From contig OZ244812.1 in assembly GCA_965220205.1 (NCBI GenBank), positions 1,223,588 through 1,287,587 of the forward strand: a DNA stretch of 64,000 bases, in the 5' to 3' direction. Of the stretch, positions 2,068 through 63,651 are shown piece by piece. Position numbers and translations under genes: made by a program. The notes beneath the pieces were generated by a model, which did no database searches, had not been told where the DNA came from, and saw only the letters and a program-made list of their open reading frames with translations. Each line of letters begins with the position of its first letter. The first letter of the stretch is position 1. Source of the stretch: Dehalococcoidia bacterium (lineage in GTDB: Bacteria > Chloroflexota > Dehalococcoidia > Lucifugimonadales > Australimonadaceae).

Positions 2068-3030
2068 ATGGTCTTCAGACTCTTCAGGCGCAAGGACAAG
2101 ACCACACAGGCGCTCGCCAAGACGCGTAAGGGCTGGGGCGGCGGTTTCCGCGCTGTGTTCGAGGGCGCAACGCTCTCCGACGAGGCCCTGTGGGAGTCCG
2201 TCGAGGACGCCCTCATTGCCGCCGACGTCGGCGTGGAGACCTCCCTAGCGCTCGTCAACTGCGTCCGCGGCCGCGTCCGGGCGGAAGGGTCCACGGGCGC
2301 CGACGTCGTCGTCGAGATGTTCAAGGAGGAGATGGCGGTCCTGCTCGACCCCCAGGACGCGTCCATCTGGGACTGGTACGACCAGCCGGATATCCCGGCC
2401 AAGCCCTTCGTGCTGATGGTGGTTGGCGTGAACGGCGCCGGCAAGACCACGAGCATCGCGAAACTCGCCCAGCACTACCATGCGATGAACAAGCGCGTGC
2501 TGCTGGCGGCCGGAGATACGTTCCGCGCCGCTGCTGTCGACCAGCTCAAGGTGTGGGGCGACCGGCTGAACGTCGACATCGTTGCGCACCAGCACGGCTC
2601 GGACCCCGGCGCCGTGGCCTTCGACGCCTACGCAGCCGCGGTCGCCCGCGACGTCGACGTACTCATCATCGACACCGCCGGGCGCCTCCACAACAAGGCC
2701 CCGCTCATCGACGAGTTGCGCAAAGTGCGCAGGGTGCTCGAGCGGCAGGACCCGGCGTCGCCGCACCAGACGTTGCTCGTACTCGACGCCACCACCGGCC
2801 ACAACGGCGTCGAGCAAGCGCGCGTATTCCAGGAGGCCGTCGGCGTCAACGGCGTGTTCCTCGCCAAGCTCGACGGCTCCGCGAAGGGGGGCGTCACCGT
2901 GGCGGTCGCCCAGGAGCTCGGCCTTCCGGTCGTCTTCATCGGCACAGGCGAGGGTCTGGACGACCTCTCGCTGTTCGACACCGACGACTTCGTCGACGCC
3001 TTGTTCGGCGACGAGCCGGCGCTGGCCTAG
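2068..3030 (+). CDS. ftsY: signal recognition particle receptor FtsY
   Basis: [11 protein letters not shown]-loop, DTAGRLH and [14 protein letters not shown]-GTPase motifs. Confidence 0.95.
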
Positions 3031-8958: not shown

Positions 8959-10032
8959 GTGAGGATGGAGGGCCCGTTGCTGACCAGCCGCCGCCTGTGG
9001 CTGGGTTTCGCCGTCACCGGCGCGTTCCTGGCTGGGCTGTTCCTGAAGATCGATCTCGACGGGATGCGCTCGGCGTTGGCCGAAGCCAACTACCTGTACC
9101 TGCTCCCCGCGGTCCTCGTCTACTTCGCATCGTTCTACGCCCGCGCCGTGCGTTGGCGCTACGTCCTCGGCCCGTTCGCGCGCGTCGGAGCAAATCGGCT
9201 CTACCCCGTGATCATGGTCGGCTACATGGCCAACAACGTGTTGCCCATGCGCTTGGGCGAGGTCGCCCGCAGCTACTACCTCTCGACGCGGGAGCCGGTG
9301 CGGGCGTCGACGGCGCTCGCCACAGTCGTCATCGAGCGCGTATTCGACGGCCTGACGCTGCTGTTCTTCCTCGCGGCCGCCGCGTTGTTCCTCCCCGTGC
9401 CCGGCCTCGCCGACCGCATCGCCGATTCGGTAAGCGCGCCGGTTTGGCTCCTGGCGATGGCCGTCATCGCGCCGTTTGTGGGCGTCCTCTCCCTCATGGT
9501 GTCAGCGGCGGTCTACCCCGATGTGTTCCTTCGAGTCGCCCGGTGGACCACGGGCAAGTTGCCTGAGCGTTTCGGCCGGCGCGCCTACGGTCTCACGCAA
9601 CGCTTCATCGACGGCTTCGAGGGGCTGCACCGGCCAAGCAAGCTTGCCGCTGTCTTCGGCCTATCCCTTCCCGTCTGGGTCCTGGAGGGCGCGGCGTACT
9701 ACATCGTGGCCCTGGGTTTCCACCTGCAGGCCGATTTCGACAGCCTTGGCCTGATGATCGCGGCGATGCTCGTGTTGACCAGCGCAGCGAACCTGGCCAC
9801 CACCATCCCCTCGTCCCAGGGGTCCGTCGGACCGTTCGAGTTCTTCGCCGTCCTATCGCTGGAGTTCCTGGGGGTTGCCTCCGGCGTTGCCTCGGCCTAC
9901 GCCATCGTGCTGCACGTCACGCTGCTGCTGCCGCCCATCGTCGCCGGGCTGCTCCACCTCGCCGCGAGCAGCGTGACGCTGGGGCAGCTCACGCGCGCAA
10001 CGCCCGCCTCTCCGACGGAGGAACGTCCATGA
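8959..10032 (+). CDS. flippase-like membrane protein (UPF0104 / lysylphosphatidylglycerol-synthase TM-region family)
   Basis: 8-TM-like profile with an NNVLPMRLGEVARSYYL motif. An alternative start is ATG 8965. Confidence 0.7.
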   Translation: MRMEGPLLTSRRLWLGFAVTGAFLAGLFLKIDLDGMRSALAEANYLYLLPAVLVYFASFYARAVRWRYVLGPFARVGANRLYPVIMVGYMANNVLPMRLGEVARSYYLSTREPVRASTALATVVIERVFDGLTLLFFLAAAALFLPVPGLADRIADSVSAPVWLLAMAVIAPFVGVLSLMVSAAVYPDVFLRVARWTTGKLPERFGRRAYGLTQRFIDGFEGLHRPSKLAAVFGLSLPVWVLEGAAYYIVALGFHLQADFDSLGLMIAAMLVLTSAANLATTIPSSQGSVGPFEFFAVLSLEFLGVASGVASAYAIVLHVTLLLPPIVAGLLHLAASSVTLGQLTRATPASPTEERP

Positions 10033-11357
10033 GAGTCGGCATCATCGGCGGAGGCGCCGCGGGACTCGCGGCCGCGTACGAGCTGGGAGCGCGCGGCCAC
10101 ACGGCGGAGGTCTTCGAAGGCGCGCCGTTCCTGGGAGGCCAGGCCTCGACGTTCGACGTGGGCGGCGCCCCCATCGAGCGCGGGTATCACCACCTCTTCC
10201 GCAGCGACACGGCCATGGCCGAGCTCATCGACGAGCTCGGCCTCGGCCATCGGTTGAAGTGGATCGATTCGAACGTCGGCTACTTCGCCGACGGACGTCT
10301 CTGGCGTTTCACATCGCCGTCCGATCTCCTGCGCTTCCGTCCGTTGCCGCTGGTCGATCGGGTCCGCTTGGGCGTGACGACGCTGCGTCTCCAGCGCCGG
10401 ACCGAGTGGCGTTCGCTCGAACAGCAGACCGCGACCGAGTGGGTCAGGCAGCACATGGGCGAGCGCGTCTACCGGGTCATCTTCGAGCCGATGCTGCGCG
10501 GCAAGTTCGGCGCGTATCACGACCAGATCAGCATGGCGTGGCTCTGGAACAAATTCGCCTTGCGCACCGCGTCGCGGGGCGAGGGCTTGCGCGGACGGTT
10601 CAAGGAACAGCTCGGCTACCCCACCGGAAGCTTCGGCGAGATTTTCGATACGCTCGCCGAGCACATCCGGCGACAGGGCGGCAGCGTTCACCCCAGCTCG
10701 GCAGTGCGCCGCGTCATCGTGACGGACGGACGCGCGACAGGCCTCGAGGTCGCCGTCGGAGGAGGGGCGCCCGAGCAGCGGCTCTACGACGCAGTGCTCG
10801 CGACCGTGCCCTCCTACGTGTTCCCGCGTCTCGTGGAGGGCCTGCCCGCCGACTACGCCGGCATGCTCGCCGACAAGACCTACCTGGCGGCCGTCCTCGT
10901 AGTCCTCGTGCTCGACCGGCCGCTCAGCCCTCACTACTGGACCTATGTGGGCGACCGGTCGCTGCCGTTCCTCGGCATCATCGAGCACACCAATCTCATA
11001 CCCGCGGAGAACTACGGCGGCGGGCACATCGTCTACCTGGCGAACTATCTCGATCGCGACGACCGGCTGTACGCCATGAGCGCGGACGAGCTGTACCGCG
11101 AGTACATCCCGCACGTCCAGCGCATCAACCCCGCGTTCAACGAGTCGTGGGTGAAGGAGTACCACCACCACAAGGTGGACGCCGCGCAGCCGATCGTCAC
11201 GCGCGGCTACTCCGAGCGCATCCCCTCCCACCAAACGCCCATCCCCGGGCTCTGGCTCGCCAACACGACCCAGATCTACCCGGAGGACCGCGGCACCAAC
11301 TACTCGGTCCGCATGGGCCGCCAGGTGGCGGCCATGATAGCGGCCGGGCAACCCTAG
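10029..11357 (+). CDS. FAD/NAD(P)-binding oxidoreductase (amine-oxidase / phytoene-desaturase-like)
   Basis: N-terminal Rossmann motif MRVGIIGGGAAGLAAAYEL. It overlaps the upstream stop by 4 nt. Its stop TAG 11355-11357 lies in the CTAG at the MITE boundary. Confidence 0.8.
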   Translation: MRVGIIGGGAAGLAAAYELGARGHTAEVFEGAPFLGGQASTFDVGGAPIERGYHHLFRSDTAMAELIDELGLGHRLKWIDSNVGYFADGRLWRFTSPSDLLRFRPLPLVDRVRLGVTTLRLQRRTEWRSLEQQTATEWVRQHMGERVYRVIFEPMLRGKFGAYHDQISMAWLWNKFALRTASRGEGLRGRFKEQLGYPTGSFGEIFDTLAEHIRRQGGSVHPSSAVRRVIVTDGRATGLEVAVGGGAPEQRLYDAVLATVPSYVFPRLVEGLPADYAGMLADKTYLAAVLVVLVLDRPLSPHYWTYVGDRSLPFLGIIEHTNLIPAENYGGGHIVYLANYLDRDDRLYAMSADELYREYIPHVQRINPAFNESWVKEYHHHKVDAAQPIVTRGYSERIPSHQTPIPGLWLANTTQIYPEDRGTNYSVRMGRQVAAMIAAGQP

Positions 11358-11559
11358 GGAACCTCTGAATAGCTCCGTCCCATCCGTTCGCCCTGAGCCC
11401 GTCGAAGCCTGTCCTGAGCCTGTCGAAGGGGGTCCCACGAACGGACTTGCCTGCTTCCCATCCTCATCTTCCTCCCCCGTTCTGGCCTCCTCCCCCGCGG
11501 GGGAGGATTGAGGAGGGGGCCTGCTGAGAGCACCAGCTCGTTGTTCAGAGGATTCCTGG
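11354..11559. mobile_element. MITE family A copy (about 206 bp), no coding capacity
   Basis: Ends are CTAG-GGAACCTCTGAATA ... TTCAGAGGATTC-CTGG. Internal modules (G-type 11385-11445, H-type hairpin 11486-11519) recur at 63436-63651 in the inverse orientation. Confidence 0.75.
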
Positions 11560-12219: not shown

Positions 12220-12245
12220 GGAGCAAGCGCTCGCCAATACGACCT

Positions 12246-12334
12246 AGATCTATCCTGAGGACCGCGGCGCCAACTACTCGGTGCACATGGCCCGCCAGGT
12301 GGCGGCGATGATCGCGGCCGACGCTCGGCGGTAA
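12246..12334 (+). pseudogene. orphan 3'-end fragment homologous to the end of the 10029-11357 oxidoreductase gene
   Basis: 12246-12320 aligns without gaps to 11272-11346 (67/75 identical, my count). The reading frame is preserved (IYPEDRGANYSVHMARQVAAMIAADARR-stop). There is no upstream gene body. Confidence 0.7.
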
Positions 12335-12388
12335 GGTTGGACTGGAGACTGGACAACCGCTACGTGCATACTTGGGTTGCACTGTGGT

Positions 12389-13717
12389 ATGAGTATTGCA
12401 AATCGGGGAGGACTGAGCTTGACAGGAATCATCGCTCGGCCAAACGGGATCGCGAACAAACTCGACCCCAGCGACCGTGCCGTGCATGACTGGTACCGGT
12501 TCGTCCAGTCATTCCCTCCTCACCTAGTCGCAAGCTACCTAGACCGGTTCGGTCTCGGCCAAGACGCGACTGTGCTCGACCCCTTCTGCGGAACTGGCGC
12601 CACGTTAGTAGAATCGAAGAAGCGGGGCATTTCCAACATAGGCATCGAAGCGAACCCTGTAGCATGCTTCGCCAGCACCGTCAAGACGTGTTGGGACATC
12701 GACCCTGATGCGCTAATTCGGGACGCGGAGCGCGTAGCGGACGAAGCACTTCACGAACTCGACATCCTGGGCATTGACGATGCCAAGGACTGCTCCGACA
12801 TGGCCGACAGCTTGCTCATCCAGAGGCTTGGCCCCGAAACGACTGCACTCCTCCTCAGGAACTCGATCAGCCCCATCCCTTTGCATAAGGCCTTGGTGCT
12901 GAGGGATCTAATCGGGACTAGCTCTGCCCATTCCGCCCACGAGCGCTTGGCGTTCGCCGGTGCCCTAGTCTCCTCAGCGAGCAACCTCAAGTTTGGACCC
13001 GAAGTTGGCGTAGGAGATCCTAAGCCCGACGCCCCCGTCATAGGCCCATGGCTCAATCGAATTCGAACAATGGCGTCCGACCTTGCCAGTTACCGTGGGA
13101 TGCCCACCGTTCTTAGTCAGGTTCATGCCGCAGATGCCCGTCAACCTGCTAGCGTCCTCGGCCGCGAGAGCATTGATGCGGTCATCACGTCCCCTCCATA
13201 CCCTAACGAGAAAGACTACACACGGACGACTAGGCTAGAGTCAGTTCTATTGGGCTTCCTCGCGTCGAAAGCCGACCTCCGCAGCCTAAAGAAATCGCTC
13301 ATACGCTCCAATACCCGTGGCGTATACAAGGGCGACAACGACGACGCCTGGATCACGGAACACCCTCGCATACAGGAGATCGCTAACCAAATAGAGGCTC
13401 GCCGAGTGGCTTTGGGAAAGACTTCGGGCTTCGAGCGCATGTATCCCCGAGTGGCCACCCTTTACTTCGGGGGAATGGCGCGCCACCTCACGAGTCTACG
13501 GTATACGCTCCGTCCCGGAGCGCGGCTCGCATATGTGATCGGAGACCAAGCATCTTACCTTCGTGTGATGATCAGGACAGGTGAGATACTAGCAGAGATC
13601 GCTGAACAGGTTGGCTACCAAGTGGAAGGACTAGACCTGTTCCGCACCAGGTTAGCAACCGCTACGAGAGAGCAATTGCGCGAAGAAGTGTTACTGCTCC
13701 GATGGAAGGGAGAATGA
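12389..13717 (+). CDS. DNA (N6-adenine or N4-cytosine) methyltransferase, motif I before motif IV
   Basis: VLDPFCGTGATLVE (FxGxG AdoMet motif) occurs N-terminal to DAVITSPPYPNEKDY (SPPY catalytic motif). The gene lies in a lower-GC segment. An alternative start is TTG 12377. Confidence 0.8.
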   Translation: MSIANRGGLSLTGIIARPNGIANKLDPSDRAVHDWYRFVQSFPPHLVASYLDRFGLGQDATVLDPFCGTGATLVESKKRGISNIGIEANPVACFASTVKTCWDIDPDALIRDAERVADEALHELDILGIDDAKDCSDMADSLLIQRLGPETTALLLRNSISPIPLHKALVLRDLIGTSSAHSAHERLAFAGALVSSASNLKFGPEVGVGDPKPDAPVIGPWLNRIRTMASDLASYRGMPTVLSQVHAADARQPASVLGRESIDAVITSPPYPNEKDYTRTTRLESVLLGFLASKADLRSLKKSLIRSNTRGVYKGDNDDAWITEHPRIQEIANQIEARRVALGKTSGFERMYPRVATLYFGGMARHLTSLRYTLRPGARLAYVIGDQASYLRVMIRTGEILAEIAEQVGYQVEGLDLFRTRLATATREQLREEVLLLRWKGE

Positions 13718-14514
13718 CCCTCAGGATCATGACCCAGTACGACCGCATCATTGAGCATGTGTTCTTTAGGAAGTTCCGGGCCAAGATGGTACAAGTCCCG
13801 TTCTCACGTGAAGAACTGGTGGCGGCGGCGGCGCATCTTGGTCTTGCGCGACCGAAGAACCTCGGTGACATTCCCTATTCATTCCGGTACCGAAGGGACC
13901 TACCCAAGTCGATCCGTGACAAAGCTCCGAAGGACTACGAGTGGGTTATACGAGGCGCGGGGACATCGCTCTACCGTTTCGACGCGATGCCGAGTCTTGA
14001 TTTGCGGCCCAACCCATCTCTGGCGGTAACCAAGATTCCGGACGCTACGCCACGAATAATTGTTCGATACGCTCAGACCGATGAGCAGGCATTGCTCGCC
14101 ATTCTCAGATACAACCGCCTAATCGACACGTTCGTAGGAGCCACCTGCTACTCGCTCCAGAACCATCTGTCTACGTCGGTTCAGGGAATCGGAAGTATGG
14201 AAACGGACGAAATCTACGTGGGGATCGACCGCCGAGGGGTCCACTATGTGTTTCCGGTGGAAGCGAAGGGAGCAAGGGAGCGGCTCGGCAGGGTGCAGAT
14301 TGAGCAAGATTTCGAACTGTGCAGCGTCAAGTTCCCGGGACTGGTCTGTCGTCCCATTGGAACACAATTCATGGGAGATGACGTCATCGCTCTGTTCGAA
14401 TACACGCGAAACGGCGACGTCCTGAGCATCGCAAGCGAACGGCACTACCAGCTTGTGGGCCAGAACGAGCCGTCGGCGGACGATCTCGTTGCCTACTCAA
14501 TTCTTCCGCTTTGA
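13714..14514 (+). CDS. candidate PD-(D/E)xK restriction endonuclease partner of the methyltransferase
   Basis: ATGA overlap with the methyltransferase stop. The motif ETDEIYVG...YVFPVEAKG fits D...ExK. It has the same lower-GC composition. I recognise no family beyond the motif. An alternative start is ATG 13702. Confidence 0.5.
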   Translation: MTLRIMTQYDRIIEHVFFRKFRAKMVQVPFSREELVAAAAHLGLARPKNLGDIPYSFRYRRDLPKSIRDKAPKDYEWVIRGAGTSLYRFDAMPSLDLRPNPSLAVTKIPDATPRIIVRYAQTDEQALLAILRYNRLIDTFVGATCYSLQNHLSTSVQGIGSMETDEIYVGIDRRGVHYVFPVEAKGARERLGRVQIEQDFELCSVKFPGLVCRPIGTQFMGDDVIALFEYTRNGDVLSIASERHYQLVGQNEPSADDLVAYSILPL

Positions 14515-18095: not shown

Positions 18096-18287
18096 CCTCC
18101 TCCCCCACGGGGGGAGGATTGAGGAGGGGGCCGCCGCCCCTCCGTCATTCCCGTGCCCCGACACGGGAATCCATGCCCCTTCCCCCACCGACCGCCCGCC
18201 GCGGTCTGACCTCCTCCCCAGACCATTCCTCCTCCCCCACGGGGGGAGGATTGAGGAGGGGGGAACCTTCGTTCAGAGGTTCTCTAG
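18096..18287. repeat. truncated MITE family A copy (right end only) with two H-type hairpin modules and one P-type module
   Basis: H modules at 18096-18130 and 18228-18263, a P module at 18143-18177, and the right end TTCAGAGGTTCT-CTAG at 18272-18287. Confidence 0.7.
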
Positions 18288-20837: not shown

Positions 20838-20873
20838 CTGGGGCCGCTTCCAAACAGGCGCCCTGTAGTCCGT

Positions 20874-21125
20874 CCTCCTCCCCCGCCACGGGAAGAGGAT
20901 GCCCTCAGTGACCCGGCAACGGCCCCGATGGCCCGGCCTCCTCCCCCGCCACGGGAAGAGGATGCCCTCAGTGACCCGGCAACGGCCCCGATGGCCCGGC
21001 CTCCTCCCCCGCCACGGGAAGAGGATGCCCTCAGTGACCCGGCAACGGCCCCGATGGCCCGGCCTCCTCCCCCGCCACGGGAAGAGGATGCCCTCAGTGA
21101 CCCGGCAAGGGCCCCGATGGCCCGG
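20874..21125. repeat. tandem repeat, 63-nt unit x4
   Basis: Units start at 20874, 20937, 21000 and 21063. Units 1-3 are identical and unit 4 has one substitution (ggcaaGggcc). Confidence 0.95.
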
Positions 21126-21183
21126 CCTCCTCCCCCACGGGGGGAGGATTGAGGAGGGGGGAGCTTGTTCAGAGTTTCCCTAG
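21126..21183. repeat. H-type hairpin module plus MITE family A right end
   Basis: CCTCCTCCCCCACGGGGGGAGGATTGAGGAGGGGGG followed by TTCAGAGTTTCC-CTAG. The CTAGGAGG at the end provides the AGGAGG preceding ATG 21197. Confidence 0.7.
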
Positions 21184-23565: not shown

Positions 23566-23826
23566 TGATCCGTTCGCCCTGAGCCCGTCGTTGACCTCCT
23601 CCCTAGTGGGGGAGGATTGAGGAGGGGGCCGCCGCCCCTATCGTCATTCTCGTGCCCGACACGGGAATCCACGCCCAGTGTCGTAACTATGACATGAACC
23701 CGTTGCGTGCACGCCATCCCATCCTCTACCCTGGTCCCAACGCCCAGCACCGACCGGGAGCCCTCCGGTCTGGCCTCCTCCCATCTGGCCTCCTCCCCAC
23801 GCTGCGGGGGGAAGATTGAGGAGGGG
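23566..23826. repeat. cluster of MITE-type modules (G fragment, H, P, second H-like)
   Basis: G fragment at 23570-23590, H at 23595-23628, P at 23641-23676, and an H-like module at 23789-23826. Confidence 0.65.
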
Positions 23827-23852
23827 AGCCGTCCAGCCCGTCCCCAGAGGAG

Positions 23853-23882
23853 AAATGTCCCCGAATGTCACCAAATGCCGCC
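23853..23882 (+). promoter_or_regulatory. three phased 10-nt units (AAATGTCCCC GAATGTCACC AAATGCCGCC) spanning the start codon of the HTH gene
   Basis: Same unit type and phase as the iteron sets of the MITE core modules. ATG 23865 lies inside unit 2 and GAGGAG lies at 23847-23852. Confidence 0.5.
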
Positions 23883-24266
23883 CCTGAAAACAGCGTAGCC
23901 CTCTCGCCCCGCCAGACCGCCGCCCTTCCCTACATCGCCTCCGAGCCCAACCTCTCCGAAGGCGCGCGGGCCGCGCAGATTGATAGACGCACCCTCACGC
24001 GATGGATGCAAGAACCCGCCTTCCGCGCCGAGCTCGAACGCGTCCGCCGCAACATCAGCGACCTGGCATTCTCCGAGCTCGAAGGGTTCACCCTCAAAGG
24101 CGTCATCCGTCTTGTGCAGCTCCTCGACGACCCCGACTCCACCGTCAGACACCGCGCCGCCAAGACTGTCATCTCGATATCCATCGCCGTGCGGCAGGAC
24201 AAGGAGATCCGCCGCCAGCTCGAGACCATCGACAACGCGCTCATCATGCTGAAGGCGCAACGATGA
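23865..24266 (+). CDS. small helix-turn-helix DNA-binding protein (phage/mobile-element type N-terminal HTH)
   Basis: LSPRQTAALPYIASEPNLSEGARAAQIDRRTLTRWMQEPAFRAELERVR fits the HTH pattern seen in small terminase-like or excisionase-like mobile-element proteins. The assignment is by pattern only. Confidence 0.55.
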   Translation: MSPNAAPENSVALSPRQTAALPYIASEPNLSEGARAAQIDRRTLTRWMQEPAFRAELERVRRNISDLAFSELEGFTLKGVIRLVQLLDDPDSTVRHRAAKTVISISIAVRQDKEIRRQLETIDNALIMLKAQR

Positions 24267-24649
24267 GGAACGCCGTCCGGCTCCTCGAACGCCGCCTCGC
24301 CTGCCTCGTCGCCCAGTCCGCCCTCGAACCCATCGTCGAGGACTACCTCGACCGCTGGTGCATCGCCGTCGAGCAGGGCGATCGGCCTCCCGACGTCTTC
24401 GACCTCGTCCACGCCGCAACTGCCGAACGCGTCCCGATGCTCAACGCCGGCGGCCTCGTCTCCTACATCGAGCAGTGCGCCGACAACGACCGCGTCCCCG
24501 ACTCCCGAAATATCATCCAGACCATCGTCCACGGCCACGCCCAACGCTACTACTTCACCAACCACGCCAAGACCTGCCGCTGCCCTGCTCGTATGCCCCT
24601 CATCATCGACTACTCCCCCTACGACGATGACCATGACCATGACAACTGA
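24263..24649 (+). CDS. hypothetical protein, translationally coupled to the HTH gene
   Basis: ATGA overlap at 24263-24266. 128 aa with an acidic His/Asp tail (DDDHDHDN). No recognised family. Confidence 0.45.
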   Translation: MRNAVRLLERRLACLVAQSALEPIVEDYLDRWCIAVEQGDRPPDVFDLVHAATAERVPMLNAGGLVSYIEQCADNDRVPDSRNIIQTIVHGHAQRYYFTNHAKTCRCPARMPLIIDYSPYDDDHDHDN

Positions 24650-24812: not shown

Positions 24813-24945
24813 GCAATGTCCCAAAATGTCCCAAAATGTCCCGGTTTAGAAGAATTTTGCTCCGCTCCTACTCGTAAACTCGTGCAATCTGCGAGTGGAC
24901 GCACTGCGCCATCTTGGGACAATCTCCGCCAATTCGCGGCGTTCT
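24813..24945. other. diverged copy of the iteron-inverted repeat-iteron core module
   Basis: GCAATGTCCC AAAATGTCCC AAAATGTCCC at 24813-24842; TACTCGTAAA at 24869-24878; hairpin ACTCG/CGAGT at 24878-24896; GCGCCATCTT GGGACAATCT CCGCCAATTC GCGGCGTTCT at 24906-24945. Confidence 0.6.
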
Positions 24946-54152: not shown

Positions 54153-54712
54153 CTGGGTGTGGCTCCAACAGAGGTTGTTGGCCATTCGGGCATCTCCTCT
54201 CTCGTGCTCGCTGGCGCACGGGCGGGCTGGCGCACGGGCGGGCTGGCGCACGGGCGGGCTGGCGGGGTTACAGGCAAGGGTAGCGAGGTGGGCGCCGCCG
54301 ACGCGGCGCGATAGGGCGTGGATTCCCGTGTCGGGGCACGAGAATGACGGCGGGTGAGACGGAATTGAACGGAAATGGGCCAAAATGGCCGGGAATCGGC
54401 CCAAATCGTGAGGTTTTTCACTCGTAAATGTAGGGGGTTTACGAGTGGACGGGCGAAATAGTGGGACATTCTGGGACATTTTGGGACATTTACTCGTAAA
54501 TCGGGCCAGCGCCCGGCGCGCCAAGCCCTGTGGGTTCGAGTGCCCCCCTTCGACGGGCTCAGGGCAGGCTTCAACAGGCATGGTAGAGGTTGGGAGGCGT
54601 TGGGGGGAGGGGCAGATGTCGCGCGCTGGGCTGGAATACCCCTCGTCCAGGTGGGGGAGGAGGCAGGGCCGGCCTCCCGGTTGTAAACAACGTGTCTGGG
54701 AACTACACCTGG
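54153..54712. mobile_element. MITE family B copy with CTGG/CTGG flanks
   Basis: CTGG at 54153-54156 and 54709-54712. Terminal inverted repeats are GTGTGGCTCC and GGGAACTACAC. It is colinear with 60093-600 and carries the core module 54361-54500 and a 16-nt tandem repeat at 54210-54267. Confidence 0.8.
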
Positions 54713-60092: not shown

Positions 60093-60600
60093 CTAGGTGT
60101 AGTTCCAGAGAGGTTGTTGGCGATTGGGCGTCCCCTTTCTCATGCTTGGCCGACGAATGGACGGGCAGCTGGGGTTGTAGACAAGAGCGGCGAGGTCCGC
60201 CGACGCAACGCGAGGGGGCGTGGATTCCCGTGTCGGGGCACGAGAATGACGGAATTCGGGGCATGGGGATGACGGCAGGTGAGACGGAATTGAACGGAAA
60301 TGGGCCAAAATGGCCGGAAATCGGCCCAAAACGTGAGGTTTTCCACTCGTAAATTGCAGGGTTTACGAGTGGAGGGGTCGAAATAGTGCGACATTCTGCG
60401 ACATTTTGCGACATTTACTCGTAAATCGAGCGGGCGGCCCAGCACGCCAGGCCACGTGGGTTCGAGTGCCTCCCTTCGACGGGCACAGGACAGGCTTCAA
60501 CAGGCATGGTAGGGGTTGGGAGGCGTTGGGGCGAGGGGCGGATGTCGCGGCGGGGCCGGCCTCCCGGCCGTACACAACGCGCCTAGGAAACTACATCTAG
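60093..60600. mobile_element. MITE family B copy with CTAG/CTAG flanks
   Basis: CTAG at 60093-60096 and 60597-60600. Terminal inverted repeats are GTGTAGTTCC and GGAAACTACAT. It carries the core module 60286-60425. The right-hand CTAG contains the stop codon of the minus-strand gene 60597-61556. Confidence 0.85.
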
Positions 60601-61582: not shown

Positions 61583-62830
61583 CTACAGCCCCTGGGGCAG
61601 GCTCGCCTTCCAGTCGGCGCCCCTGGGCTGGAAGTTGGTGATCATGTAGCAGTAGTCGTGCACCTGGTTCTCCTCGTCGGTGTACGCGACGCCGGGGGGT
61701 TCGATGCCTTCCTGCAGATCGCGGGCGGCCTGGAGCAGGAACCGGCGCACCTCGATGACGTGAAGGTCGCTCGCGGCGAGGTTCTCCTGTGTGCGGTCGG
61801 TGATGGCGCCCATGCTCTCGGTGACCATCTTGTCCTGGGTGTGGTTGCGCGCGTCCACGCCCGAGTACACCTCTCCCGACTTCTGCTTGGCGCGGTCGAT
61901 CAGGTAGTCGTTGCCCCGGTTGTAGAGACTCATGAAGCCTGGGCCGACCTCTGAGCGGTCGCCCTCTTGGTAGGTCCCGTCCACGGTGTCGTTCCACCAC
62001 GTCTCCAAGTCATACCGCCAGTTGGTGTAGTCGTCGGCCGGCACCTGGTAGATCGTATGCACAGCCGTGTTGAGACCGTCGATGGACTCGCCCCTGGGCG
62101 TGTTCCCCATGCACGGCATGAGGAACGTGTTCGTCCGCACCATCTCCTGGCCGTCGTCCACTGGGTAGATCGTCGCAGCCCTGACGCCCCAGGGCAGTCG
62201 GTCGATCTTGACGGACGCCGTGTTCCTCCTCGCCATGGCCGCGCGGCCTCCGCTCTGACTGGCCCGCCGGTGCAGGTACGGCGTATGGATCGAGTCGTTG
62301 TCGCCTTCCAGCGCCTGGAGCCAGTTGCACTCGAGAAAGACCTTGCTGCCAACGCTAATGTGGTCCTGGGACATCGTGTGCCACGGGAAGGCGGGGAGCA
62401 GCGGCATCAGGGCCGGGGGGCCCATGTAGGTGAGGACCAGGCCGTTCGCTTCCCGGCACGGGTACGCCTTGTGCTTGACGATGTTCTTGAGCTGACTCTG
62501 CTCGGGCTCGGCCGGCATGTCGACGACGTTCCCGTCGGCGTCGTACTTCCAGCCGTGGTAGACACAGGTGAGACCGCACTCCTCGTTCCGTCCGTAGAAG
62601 AGCGACGCCCGGCGGTGGGAGCAGTACTCGCCGAGCAGCCCTACCCTGCCGGTCGTGTCGCGGAAGGCTACGAGGTCTTCGCCCAGCAGCCGGACGCGCA
62701 CAGGCGTGCAGTCGGGCTCGGGCAGCTCCTCTGAGAGCAGGGCGGGAATCCAGTAGCGGCGGAAGAGCTCCCCCATAGGGGTCCCCGCGCCGACACGGGT
62801 CAGAATCTCGTTGTCTTCTTTTGTAAACAC
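61583..62830 (-). CDS. Rieske [2Fe-2S] aromatic-ring-hydroxylating oxygenase alpha subunit
   Basis: CSHRRASL...CVYHGWKY Rieske motif, followed by a catalytic domain with DNDSIHTPYLH. Confidence 0.9.
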   Translation of the reverse strand: MFTKEDNEILTRVGAGTPMGELFRRYWIPALLSEELPEPDCTPVRVRLLGEDLVAFRDTTGRVGLLGEYCSHRRASLFYGRNEECGLTCVYHGWKYDADGNVVDMPAEPEQSQLKNIVKHKAYPCREANGLVLTYMGPPALMPLLPAFPWHTMSQDHISVGSKVFLECNWLQALEGDNDSIHTPYLHRRASQSGGRAAMARRNTASVKIDRLPWGVRAATIYPVDDGQEMVRTNTFLMPCMGNTPRGESIDGLNTAVHTIYQVPADDYTNWRYDLETWWNDTVDGTYQEGDRSEVGPGFMSLYNRGNDYLIDRAKQKSGEVYSGVDARNHTQDKMVTESMGAITDRTQENLAASDLHVIEVRRFLLQAARDLQEGIEPPGVAYTDEENQVHDYCYMITNFQPRGADWKASLPQGL

Positions 62831-62909: not shown

Positions 62910-63056
62910 CATGGGGAGCCTCTGAACAAGTCGCTGATGCCCTCAGCAGTGGCGGAAGGGAGAGACCGGGAGCCCCCTCAATCCGTTCGTGGAACCCCCT
63001 TCGACGAGCTCAGGGCGAACGGATGGGGACGGAGTTATTCAGAGGTTCCCCGTAGG
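62910..63056. mobile_element. short MITE family A copy, degenerate ends
   Basis: GGGAGCCTCTGAACA ... TTCAGAGGTTCCCC with an internal G module at 62985-63025. The flanks (CATG/GTAG) do not match each other. Confidence 0.55.
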
Positions 63057-63435
63057 TTGTTCGACAGACGAGGGGCCTCATCCCTGTGTACCCGTGTTTG
63101 GCGCGGGCACGACGACGGGGCAGAGGGGCGTGACGTGAGATTCGGCGGAAACGGACCGGAATGACACGGCGAATCACTCGTAGATTGCATCGGTTTACGA
63201 GTGGCCGGCGAGAGATATTTCTTCCAAGCGGTCTCATTTGGTCTCTTTTGGTCTCATTTCTCCTTCGGGTCGAGCCGGACGCCCGCGTGCCGGGCTGCCG
63301 CGCAGAGTTGGGCCATTGGGGACAGTGTAGGAGGCGAGGGGACGTTCGAGGAAGGGGCGGGTGTCATAGGGGGCGGGGCGAAGTCCCCCTTCTCCGCGGT
63401 GGTAGAAGGCCAGAGGGAAAAGGAGACGGTTGCAC
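63057..63435. repeat. degenerate MITE family B-like body lacking its left terminus
   Basis: It starts at AGGTTGTT, which matches 60111-60118 of the 60 kb copy. It carries the core module 63140-63259 and is bounded on both sides by family A copies. Confidence 0.55.
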
Positions 63436-63651
63436 CTAGGAAACCTCTGAGCAACATGCTGATGCTCTCAGCAGAGCGGAGGTTCCCCCCTCCTCAATCC
63501 TCCCCCCGTAGGGGAGGAGGCCAGAACGGGGAGGAGAGTGAGGACGGGAAGCAGCCAAGTCCGTTCGCGGGACCCCCTTCGAAAGGCTCAGGACAGGCTT
63601 TGACGGGCTCAGGGCGAACGAATGGGGCGGAGCCATTCAGAGGTTCCCTAG
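63436..63651. mobile_element. MITE family A copy with CTAG/CTAG flanks
   Basis: CTAG-GAAACCTCTGAG ... TTCAGAGGTTCC-CTAG. It is colinear with 11354-11559 in the inverse orientation. The right-hand CTAG contains the stop codon of the minus-strand acyl-CoA dehydrogenase gene. Confidence 0.8.

Follow-up and report, generated by a model that had tools for sequence, protein, structure and literature searches.

What is the short intergenic module that recurs four times in this 64,000-nt stretch of Dehalococcoidia DNA (the window), and which protein reads it? The module was originally described as a set of phased 10-nt repeats, a 10-nt inverted repeat (IR) and three tandem 10-nt units whose heads change in concert from copy to copy, and a recombinase target was the first function proposed for it. 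Here we compared the modules with ORF1, a gene of the same window encoding a helix-turn-helix (HTH) protein that resembles the small subunit of phage terminases (TerS). The ORF1 family shares promoter, leader and units with the modules, which favors an operator array, an alternative already listed in the original prediction. We give about an even chance to the reading that TerS-like paralogues that form rings use the modules as arrays of operators, or for wrapping, on double-stranded DNA; in this reading both binding and regulation are what we infer.

Architecture and recurrence of the modules

All four copies were recovered where they had been placed before (Table 1), copy 4 being inverted relative to the others and more diverged. 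Window numbering is used throughout, and the direction of each module was assigned by homology to ORF1 leaders. Read on the minus strand, copy 1 consists of a third arm, three units, the IR and a phased tract, in this order. The third arm, claimed for two copies, is present in copies 1 and 2 and absent in copies 3 and 4 and in the module of locus L069; in copy 3 a Shine-Dalgarno (SD) sequence, AAGGAG (63265-63260), occupies its place. The IR arms span 10 nt and enclose a spacer of 8-9 nt that is semi-conserved across copies (CCTGCGCAT-like). Copy 4 lies 165 nt past ORF2, the gene following ORF1, and upstream of the gene for a CCA-adding enzyme; its tract (to 24945) contains an inverted GGGACA unit, and its sequence is identical in the related strain L070. 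Copies 1 and 2 share ~90% identity across ~420 nt (54282-54702 versus 60184-60589) and thus represent one recent duplication and not independent occurrences. The functional unit exceeds the 140 nt first described. All four modules are intergenic, in intergenic regions shared with three other short repeat families, and are ~50% A+T within a window of 68% G+C.

The pattern CACTCGTARA-N8-9-TTTACGAGTG with up to three mismatches matched four times in the window compared to 0.00 matches expected from shuffles, and a profile hidden Markov model (HMM) derived from 17 related modules recovered exactly the four copies in 64 kb. Five unit arrays, namely those of the four modules and one at the ORF1 start, were detected as period-10 arrays by Tandem Repeats Finder, and only two more period-10 rows turned up, both in the copy-2 cassette, one being its phased tract (60295-60326) and the other lying at 60507-60530. 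The described phasing was borne out by the periodicity of weak versus strong bases at 10.5 nt, in which copies 1 and 2 rank top among the 140-nt stretches of the window (0/1000 shuffles), whereas phasing of copies 3 and 4 is weaker (9 and 8 of 1000 shuffles). Tabulation of the heads of 23 arrays gave an identity of 0.81 within arrays versus 0.38 between arrays (0/5000 permutations), which implies that the concerted variation proposed for the units is real, albeit not absolute, since the unit beside the third arm deviates in L007, L009, L011, L013, L015 and L019. The palindrome core ACTCG/CGAGT is invariant in 18/18 modules, while its flanks diverge.

Scanning 185,579 species genomes with the strict IR pattern identified 12 loci in only four Dehalococcoidia metagenome-assembled genomes (MAGs) and, besides these, two matches due to chance; the pattern occurs in six 8-kb chunks of OZ252088.1 (3.17 Mb) and in three chunks of OZ244741.1, and one additional, looser copy was found in L018. 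The Dehalococcoidia matches all keep the architecture of phased tract, palindrome, 12-25 nt and three units, and in most of them a third arm with an ACTCGT core is present as well. No more than a few Dehalococcoidia MAGs possess the module. A metagenome scan with CACTCGYARA-N8-9-TYTACGAGTG returned 41 loci, all of low GC content and none fitting the module profile, which we rejected as chance matches together with all 6 matches of a viral scan. Every module examined, including those of other genomes, is intergenic. In 14/17 cases a gene reads away from the tract side (p 0.006). Three modules, namely copy 4 of the window and those of L017 and L069, have an ORF1 gene or ORF1-ORF2 pair at a distance of ~600 nt or less. 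Syntenic intergenic regions in L019 are devoid of modules, implying that modules are gained and lost. Of the hallmarks of MITE- or REP-type mobile repeats, no terminal inverted repeat or target site duplication was recognised, and the comparison with the empty sites of L019 was uninformative as other repeats fill those intergenic regions.

Relationship of the modules to ORF1 leaders and ORF1 proteins

The HTH protein encoded at 23865-24266 had been pointed out as a candidate for binding the units, and its gene, ORF1, carries the same three-unit array at its start codon. On the strand opposite to the one first read, module units consist of (A/T)ATG and a 5-6-nt head, and the ATG of unit 2 is the ORF1 start codon. 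An array of 10-11-nt units lies at, or just upstream of, the start in every ORF1 gene examined, with three to nine units between the promoter and the ORF1 start or its leader, and the promoter block (TGTGACATCTGCCCGTTGCGC-N18-TACCCTG) is conserved across all ORF1 loci. In the eight close loci (the window, L062-L065 and L067-L069), three (A/T)ATG-head units directly follow the SD and gene calls start from the ATG of unit 2. Of 95 N-terminal hexapeptides, 64 agree at 8/8 positions with a perfect tandem repeat of 10 nt and 85 do so at 7/8 or more, compared to 0/300 at 8/8 in the null. In distant homologues the position of the array relative to the start codon differs: L072 has 5-6 GTTGCA units in the 5'-UTR and L074 four units just upstream of the SD. 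The hexapeptide fit, combined with arrays located elsewhere in distant homologues, implies that the ATG belongs to a site and is not driven by coding.

These two distant homologues (L072 7860-8030 and L074 270-330; 47% and 40% identity) possess both the promoter block and head arrays, and in both a third-arm-like CTCACGAGTGGAG acts as SD region, suggesting that ORF1 leaders had a third arm ancestrally. In strain L070, ORF1 is 99% identical to window ORF1 and its unit array (2993-3020) reads AATGCAC AATGTCCCAG AATGCCGCCC; the sequences mark the ORF1 array as a mutational or conversion hot spot, while copy 4 is unchanged between the two strains.

Homology of the modules to these leaders extends beyond the units. 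Copy 3 (minus strand) aligns with the 5'-UTR, SD and units of the L065 ORF1 gene over 51 nt at ~88% identity (z 20), and the promoter block upstream of it was detected by nhmmer (E 0.046) and by pairwise comparison (z 7.0, 0/200 shuffles). An HMM of the ORF1 promoter also matched upstream of the modules of L013 (1e-16), L019 (3e-15), L015 (1.5e-13), L016 (2.5e-11), L069 (4.5e-7) and L008 (6.5e-4). These promoter matches read in the correct direction and are located 100-250 nt upstream of the unit arrays. In the remnant upstream of copy 1 a -10-like TACCAT (54585-54580) is left, the -35 is lost and nhmmer gave no match; a repetitive extragenic palindrome (REP)-like insert, 54525-54579, separates this remnant from the third arm. 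Downstream of the units, modules carry the palindrome CACTCGTAAA-N8-9-TTTACGAGTG and the ~10.5-nt phased tract, not ORF1 coding sequence, and this stretch is the best-conserved portion of a module. Judged by these alignments, the modules are ORF1 promoter-leader cassettes joined to a conserved palindrome and a phased tract.

Other origins of the module were considered and rejected. Resemblances of CCCTACAT and ACCTCACG seen by eye hinted at decayed ORF1 coding sequence as the source of IR and tract, but an HMM of ORF1 codons 9-80 gave no match even at E<=100. A scenario in which an ORF1-ORF2 cassette had integrated into a module, so that the unit arrays represent attL and attR, fits the window arrays 23854-23883 and 24815-24844 but fails as a general rule in L069, where heads differ, in L017, and in L062, L065 and L068, which have no module after ORF2. 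Coding of a small peptide was discarded for lack of a conserved ORF, since frames vary with the 8- or 9-nt spacer and the TGCGCA family has no ATG. Scanning the copy 1 region for sigma-70 promoter and terminator consensus sequences gave only the HflK promoter and one weak hairpin, and a manual search inside the core for -35/-10 or sigma-54 boxes gave nothing convincing. The cassettes L013 6480-6600, L015 5050-5170 and L019 3200-3290, which belong to one genome, contain 7-9 extra TGTCGCA units each, at 10-11-nt spacing between promoter and third arm and in the orientation opposite to the three units; L072 shows the same inverted-unit arrangement.

Several head classes are common to modules and ORF1 genes: TCCCA occurs in copies 1 and 4 and in L064, AGACC in copy 3, the L018 module and the L065 ORF1, and GCTCA in the L011 module and the L063 ORF1. 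Among ORF1 proteins, the N-terminal classes, which reflect the heads, follow the variable HTH positions 38, 40, 42 and 45 with some exceptions. The most telling case is P0011, which is encoded at the orthologous locus downstream of DUF5671 and shares 83% identity with window ORF1. Between residues 16 and 88 the two proteins differ at 5 positions, and these are 35, 40, 41, 42 and 45 (p ~3e-5); the head of P0011 has changed from TGTC(C/A)C to GAGACC. P0038 and P0066 have the HTH of P0011 and likewise start with MR(P/L)NET, although they share only 62-64% identity with window ORF1. Head and HTH of P0011 are both switched, implying that head and recognition helix move together. The window ORF1 array heads TGTCCC, TGTCAC and TGCCGC resemble those of copies 1, 4 and 2, while the head of copy 3 is of the P0011 type. 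The joint change of the heads with the ORF1 DNA-reading helix most likely identifies the modules as binding-site arrays and not as recombination sites.

The 133-aa ORF1 protein matched the terminase small subunit profiles of PHROG (best phrog_2538, E 1.5e-6, a weak match). Its AlphaFold2 model (pLDDT 86) shows an N-terminal HTH followed by long helices, and the best Foldseek match in the PDB was 2ao9 (E 0.014), with Sf6 gp1 at rank 15; 2ao9 has been shown among the small-terminase rings (PMC4737164). In BFVD the best match (E 6.6e-5) is unnamed, and the named matches, weaker and from rank 6 (E 7e-3), are terminase small subunits. A Pfam search gave no match reaching its cut-off, a profile search against PDB sequences returned only HEAT-like noise, and tblastn against 50,697 phage records only two weak matches. 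The only annotated match in the phage collection is a hypothetical protein of Streptococcus satellite phage Javan328 (L075, MK448433.1 8737-9084), which shares 22% identity with ORF1 over 86% of its length (E 3e-3).

Homologues of ORF1 formed 95 clusters, all of ~133 aa and all from Chloroflexi/Dehalococcoidia MAGs, with several paralogues per genome. The gene is kept in conserved chromosomal synteny across genera, being located after DUF5671 in the window, L069 and L070 and, in L017 and L067, between helicase and histone deacetylase-family genes. Literature searches turned up no account of a cellular TerS-like family of this kind, and the ORF1 family appears to be a previously undescribed cellular family of TerS-like proteins. 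ORF2, the only conserved partner of ORF1, follows many but not all ORF1 genes and encodes helical proteins of about 120-160 aa, for which profile and structure searches revealed no Pfam, PHROG or fold match and no NTPase features.

Candidate functions of the arrays

The spacing of 10-10.5 nt and the presence of the same head in both orientations within one cassette argue for double-stranded DNA, not RNA, as the target. Together with the A/T phasing at 10.5 nt over ~140 nt and the TerS-like fold, decamer spacing and two-way heads suggest an oligomer whose HTHs are one turn apart. In TerS rings, adjacent HTHs are spaced by about one turn of B-DNA, and the DNA bound by the rings carries repeats, is intrinsically bent and covers promoter, RBS and start codon of terS (PMC4737164). 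By analogy, ORF1 proteins would assemble as TerS-like rings with neighboring HTHs ~one DNA turn apart, and a ring would contact three successive units on one face of the duplex, as the earlier suggestion that units are read as a set on one helical face also had it, an idea that our data support. Phased A/T tracts may favor bending or wrapping. At ORF1 genes such binding would be autoregulatory, as suggested by the location of the array between promoter and start codon, while orphan cassettes could put an address-coded operator before other genes or serve as extra or decoy sites. Window ORF1 would then prefer AATGTCCCA x3 over AATGAGACC x3, and a P0011-type protein the reverse. The invariant palindrome would be read by a second, non-variable factor, for which ORF2 is a candidate. 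The same type of site is found at the gene of the putative regulator and upstream of other genes, mostly in fixed orientation, and the 14/17 bias is compatible with control of the downstream gene.

The closest known counterpart is the pac site of the Bacillus phages SPP1 and SF6 with its cognate G1P, a TerS-fold HTH protein whose binding region spans its own promoter, RBS and start codon, in the same placement as the ORF1 array; like the units and the phasing of the module, it combines short direct repeats (boxA, boxB and boxC) with intrinsically bent DNA (PMC4737164). In contrast to SPP1 and SF6, no TerL or virion gene is found near ORF1, the family comprises several paralogues and is chromosomal and syntenic, each repeat is a strict decamer whose head depends on the paralogue, an invariant 10-nt palindrome is added, and orphan copies of the site lie scattered in front of cellular genes.

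Several observations weigh against an operator or wrapping array. The correlation of heads with HTH residues is imperfect, with P0015, P0009, P0017, P0040 and P0048 as exceptions, and is partly confounded by shared descent or block recombination. The promoter remnants of copies 1 and 2 have no -35. The cassettes of L013 and L016, despite their strong promoter matches, face a convergent gene, which means that control of a downstream gene is not general and that some cassettes must be stand-alone sites. In L017 and L069 the module lies beside an ORF1 gene with a different head, and no module was found within 5-6 kb of ORF1 in L062-L068. Scores for the TerS-like assignment are modest (PHROG 1.5e-6, Foldseek PDB 1.4e-2, TM 0.36-0.58). 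Furthermore, the DNA-binding domains of SPP1-type TerS have little sequence specificity (PMC4737164), which is at odds with the specificity proposed here.

Neutral debris is an unlikely alternative in our judgment. According to it, the modules would be functionless, decaying partial duplicates of ORF1 5' regions in repeat-rich DNA with REP-like families, with unit homogeneity due to slippage or gene conversion. The presence of modules among three other interspersed repeat families, their absence at syntenic positions in L019, the recent duplication and decayed promoter of copies 1 and 2, the degraded IR of copy 4, and the fast turnover implied by an ORF1 array that differs between 99%-identical strains would all be in line with decay. 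However, IR and tract have no detectable similarity to ORF1 coding sequence and are conserved in four MAG species, even though the genes that these species share have only 40-80% identity; moreover, the palindrome core resists the divergence of its flanks, the units always number three, the 10.5-nt phasing is kept and orientation is biased. Rather improbable as well is an element acting at the RNA level, in which an ORF1-type promoter would transcribe a leader or stand-alone RNA with mutually exclusive hairpins at the AUG units (an IR arm pairing either with the third arm or with the other IR arm), and this RNA would either regulate translation or read-through or serve as a decoy for the leader of the ORF1 mRNA. 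Consistent with such an RNA, the promoter is located upstream in the right direction, the units are part of the transcribed leader together with SD and AUG, the L013 and L016 cassettes have no downstream co-directional gene, and the mutually exclusive hairpins originally proposed were reproduced in silico for copy 1, with IR hairpin z values of -2.8 (copy 1) and -4.4 (copy 2). Yet the 10 IR pairs contain 0 compensatory changes and RNAalifold predicted only the invariant IR, mismatches at arm position 9 can affect either arm, with A-C resulting in one strand or in the other, folding of copies 3 and 4 does not surpass that of shuffles, and these two copies and L069 are without a third arm. No U-run follows the hairpin, and Rfam 15 yielded no module match at gathering score or E<=1, so that membership in a known non-coding RNA family, which had been named as a possible outcome, found no support. 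Both the 10.5-nt phasing and the two-way heads point to duplex DNA.

Recruitment of a packaging or transfer machinery is a further explanation, to which we attach a low probability: TerS-like proteins would mark pac-like chromosomal sites for the large terminase of a prophage, satellite helper or gene-transfer agent (GTA) encoded elsewhere, and packaging of host DNA would start at the modules. The TerS-like profile and fold of ORF1, direct repeats and bent DNA that straddle the start of a TerS-like gene as in the SPP1 pac (PMC4737164), the tripartite layout of units, palindrome and phased tract, and head-HTH pairs that look orthogonal, as packaging specificity would predict, are compatible with this, but no TerL, portal, capsid or phage gene was found within 5-8 kb of ORF1 in 13 ORF1-bearing loci or in the 64-kb window, and ORF1 is a syntenic chromosomal gene with several paralogues per genome. 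Least probable of all are partition or nucleoid-organising sites of the parC or tubC type with an autoregulated adaptor, and sites of recombination or rolling-circle replication; the partition, recombination and rolling-circle readings all figured in the original prediction. In ParR-parC of R1 and in TubR-tubC, direct repeats of 10-12 bp in helical phase at the promoter of the operon for a small DNA-binding protein wrap round a protein oligomer, and specificity varies between related systems. The helically spaced repeats beside or within the promoter-leader of the gene of the putative binder are reminiscent of this organisation, but the ORF1 HTH is TerS-like and not a ribbon-helix-helix or winged helix, partner NTPases are lacking, ORF2 included, and the sites are chromosomal, dispersed and mostly of three units. 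Similarly, the modules resemble lambda attP/attR with Xis sites and lox/FRT in having two inverted arms round a short spacer, three head-to-tail sites ~one turn apart and bent DNA. Their 10-nt arms and semi-conserved 8-9-nt spacer fit only in part the 11-13-bp arms and 6-8-bp crossover spacer of recombinase targets, their tandem sites are homologous to the translation-initiation region of a gene, and the associated protein has a TerS-like and not an integrase or Xis fold. Moreover, copies are many and dispersed, and a crossover between copies with the same spacer would rearrange the chromosome. Tyrosine or serine recombinases (Phage_integrase, Resolvase and Recombinase families) were detected neither in the window nor beside the 18 modules, and Rep or relaxase (HUH) families neither in the window nor in the examined loci. 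The reported absence of recombinase, Rep and Par genes from the window holds for the ~50 ORFs scanned against Pfam, and extends to ParA, ParM and TubZ-type NTPases, tyrosine/serine recombinases and Rep beside the modules and ORF1 loci examined. The recombinase-site reading is not supported, and the rolling-circle and partition readings are without their defining partner genes. Transposases at ORF1 loci are those of unrelated insertion sequences (DDE, rve, in L062 and L068; IS110-type in L064).

The modules also recall the composite BIME (bacterial interspersed mosaic element) and RIP elements of Escherichia coli (REP plus a site for integration host factor) and 'mobile promoters', which are short multi-copy intergenic mosaics with protein-binding sites and bent DNA. 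Modules are likewise gained and lost between related genomes and adjoin REP-like hairpins. Unlike BIME and RIP elements, they are low in copy number, lie upstream of genes and not at 3' ends, and contain a recognisable promoter and an SD along with address-coded units that derive from a single specific family of genes.

If ORF1 proteins bind the arrays, the two would form a natural set of orthogonal protein-site pairs based on the fold of small terminases, proteins for which recognition of DNA by shape and a weak sequence specificity are commonly assumed. The coupled switch of head and helix between orthologues would provide a readable specificity code. The operator reading would further mean that a phage packaging protein has been domesticated for cellular DNA transactions in an uncultured Dehalococcoidia lineage. 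It would account for a conspicuous curved-DNA repeat and show how the promoter-leader-operator of one gene can be copied before other genes. A far-reaching version, which we regard as a long shot, is an 'address code' of a cellular family of ring-forming TerS-like paralogues. The recognition helix of each paralogue would read, in three phased decamers, the 5-6-nt head that belongs to it, helix and head would be exchanged as one cassette, and orphan arrays of units, palindrome and wrapping tract would be planted around the chromosome, forming either a new nucleoprotein switch or pac-like points of entry at which the packaging motor of a phage or GTA could load selected regions of the host chromosome. 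Annotators should note that spurious ORF calls are easily prompted by the three out-of-frame ATGs found at ORF1 starts and in modules.

Feature coordinates and neighboring repeats

The window derives from the chromosome of a Dehalococcoidia-like bacterium of high GC content and contains a large SRP RNA, housekeeping genes including those for RNase III, FtsY, DNA ligase, Pth, LepA and KsgA, and many amidohydrolase and oxygenase genes. Table 1 lists the features relevant to the modules.

Table 1. Positions of module, ORF1 and repeat features in the window (rc, reverse complement).
Feature	Position	Strand	Details
Module copy 1	54361-54500	minus	
Copy 1 third arm	54500-54491	minus	TTTACGAGTA
Copy 1 units	54492-54463	minus	three, AATGTCCCA(A/G/C)
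Copy 1 IR	arms 54419-54428 / 54438-54447	minus	CACTCGTAAA-N9-TTTACGAGTG (54447-54419); spacer tgtaggggg
Copy 1 phased tract	54412-54361	minus	
Copy 1 promoter remnant	54579-54621	minus	degenerate, CGACATCTGCCC ... CTCTACCATG; z 3.5, 2/200 shuffles; weak
Module copy 2	60286-60425	minus	third arm 60425-60416; phased tract 60337-60286
Copy 2 units	about 60387-60418	minus	AATGTCGCA x3
Copy 2 IR	arms 60344-60353 / 60362-60371		8-nt spacer
Copy 2 promoter remnant	60504-60546	minus	degenerate, GACATCCGCCC ... CCCTACCATGC; z 2.7, 5/200; weak
Module copy 3	63140-63268	minus	phased tract to 63140
Copy 3 units	63259-63230	minus	AATGAGACCA / AAAGAGACCA / AATGAGACCG
Copy 3 IR	arms 63175-63184 / 63194-63203		one mismatch
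Copy 3 promoter block	63312-63372	minus	TATGACACCCGCCCC...CCTACACTGTCC; -10-like TACACT
Module copy 4	24813-24945	plus	inverted relative to other copies
Copy 4 units	24815-24844	plus	AATGTCCCAA x2 and AATGTCCCGG
Copy 4 IR	24869-24897		TACTCGTAAA-N9-TCTGCGAGTG; diverged, 3 mismatches
ORF1 promoter block	23679-23744	plus	imperfect IR GTCGTAACTATGAC, -35 TTGCGT, 18-nt spacer, -10 TACCCT (E ~1e-15)
ORF1 initiation region	23846-23883	plus	SD AGAGGAGA at 23846-23853
ORF1 units	23854-23863; 23864-23873; 23874-23883	plus	AATGTCCCCG; AATGTCACCA; AATGCCGCCC
ORF1	23865-24266	plus	133 aa; predicted HTH residues 15-48, then long helices
ORF2	24263-24649	plus	128 aa; start overlaps ORF1 stop (ATGA)
CCTCCTCCCCCACGGGGGGAGGATTGAGGAGGGGG repeat	11485-11521, 18096-18132, 18228-18264, 21126-21162, 23594-23630, 23793-23829, 63484-63522 (rc)		
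REP-like families, first group	54320-54350, 60222-60252, 18141-18182 (rc), ~23637-23668		
REP-like families, second group	54534-54565, 60460-60491, 62985-63016, 63563-63594, 11397-11449 (rc)		

A 37-nt interspersed hairpin repeat, CCTCCTCCCCCACGGGGGGAGGATTGAGGAGGGGG, is present in 6-7 copies and is inserted in the ORF1 5'-UTR here and in L065 and L067. Two more REP-like families, GGATTCCCGTGTCGGGGCACGAGAATGACGG and the CCCTTCGACGGGCTCAGGGC-type, flank or interrupt module cassettes, which makes each intergenic region a mosaic of repeats. ORF1-ORF2 pairs or modules are located beside genes of LigXa_C-type Rieske oxygenases in five independent contexts (window 61583-62830, with copy 3 upstream; L009 3326-4456; L065 8772-9947; L071-L073 ~8970-10250; L068 9595-10860); these oxygenases may be regulated genes, but they are abundant in these genomes.

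Further repeats were observed elsewhere in the window. At 20870-21136 a 63-nt tandem repeat (4.2 copies, 99% identical) is located at the start of DUF5671, the gene preceding ORF1, or immediately upstream of this start. A low-GC island (12377-14514; 0.57-0.60 versus 0.68) encodes an N6/N4 DNA methylase and is preceded by a 92-nt direct repeat (11255-11346 / 12229-12320, 89% identity) that duplicates the 3' end of an amine-oxidase gene; island and direct repeat may constitute an insertion scar. Finally, a 16-nt tandem repeat, GCTGGCGCACGGGCGG (54210-54264; 3.4 copies, 100% identical), is situated between the HflK promoter and copy 1.

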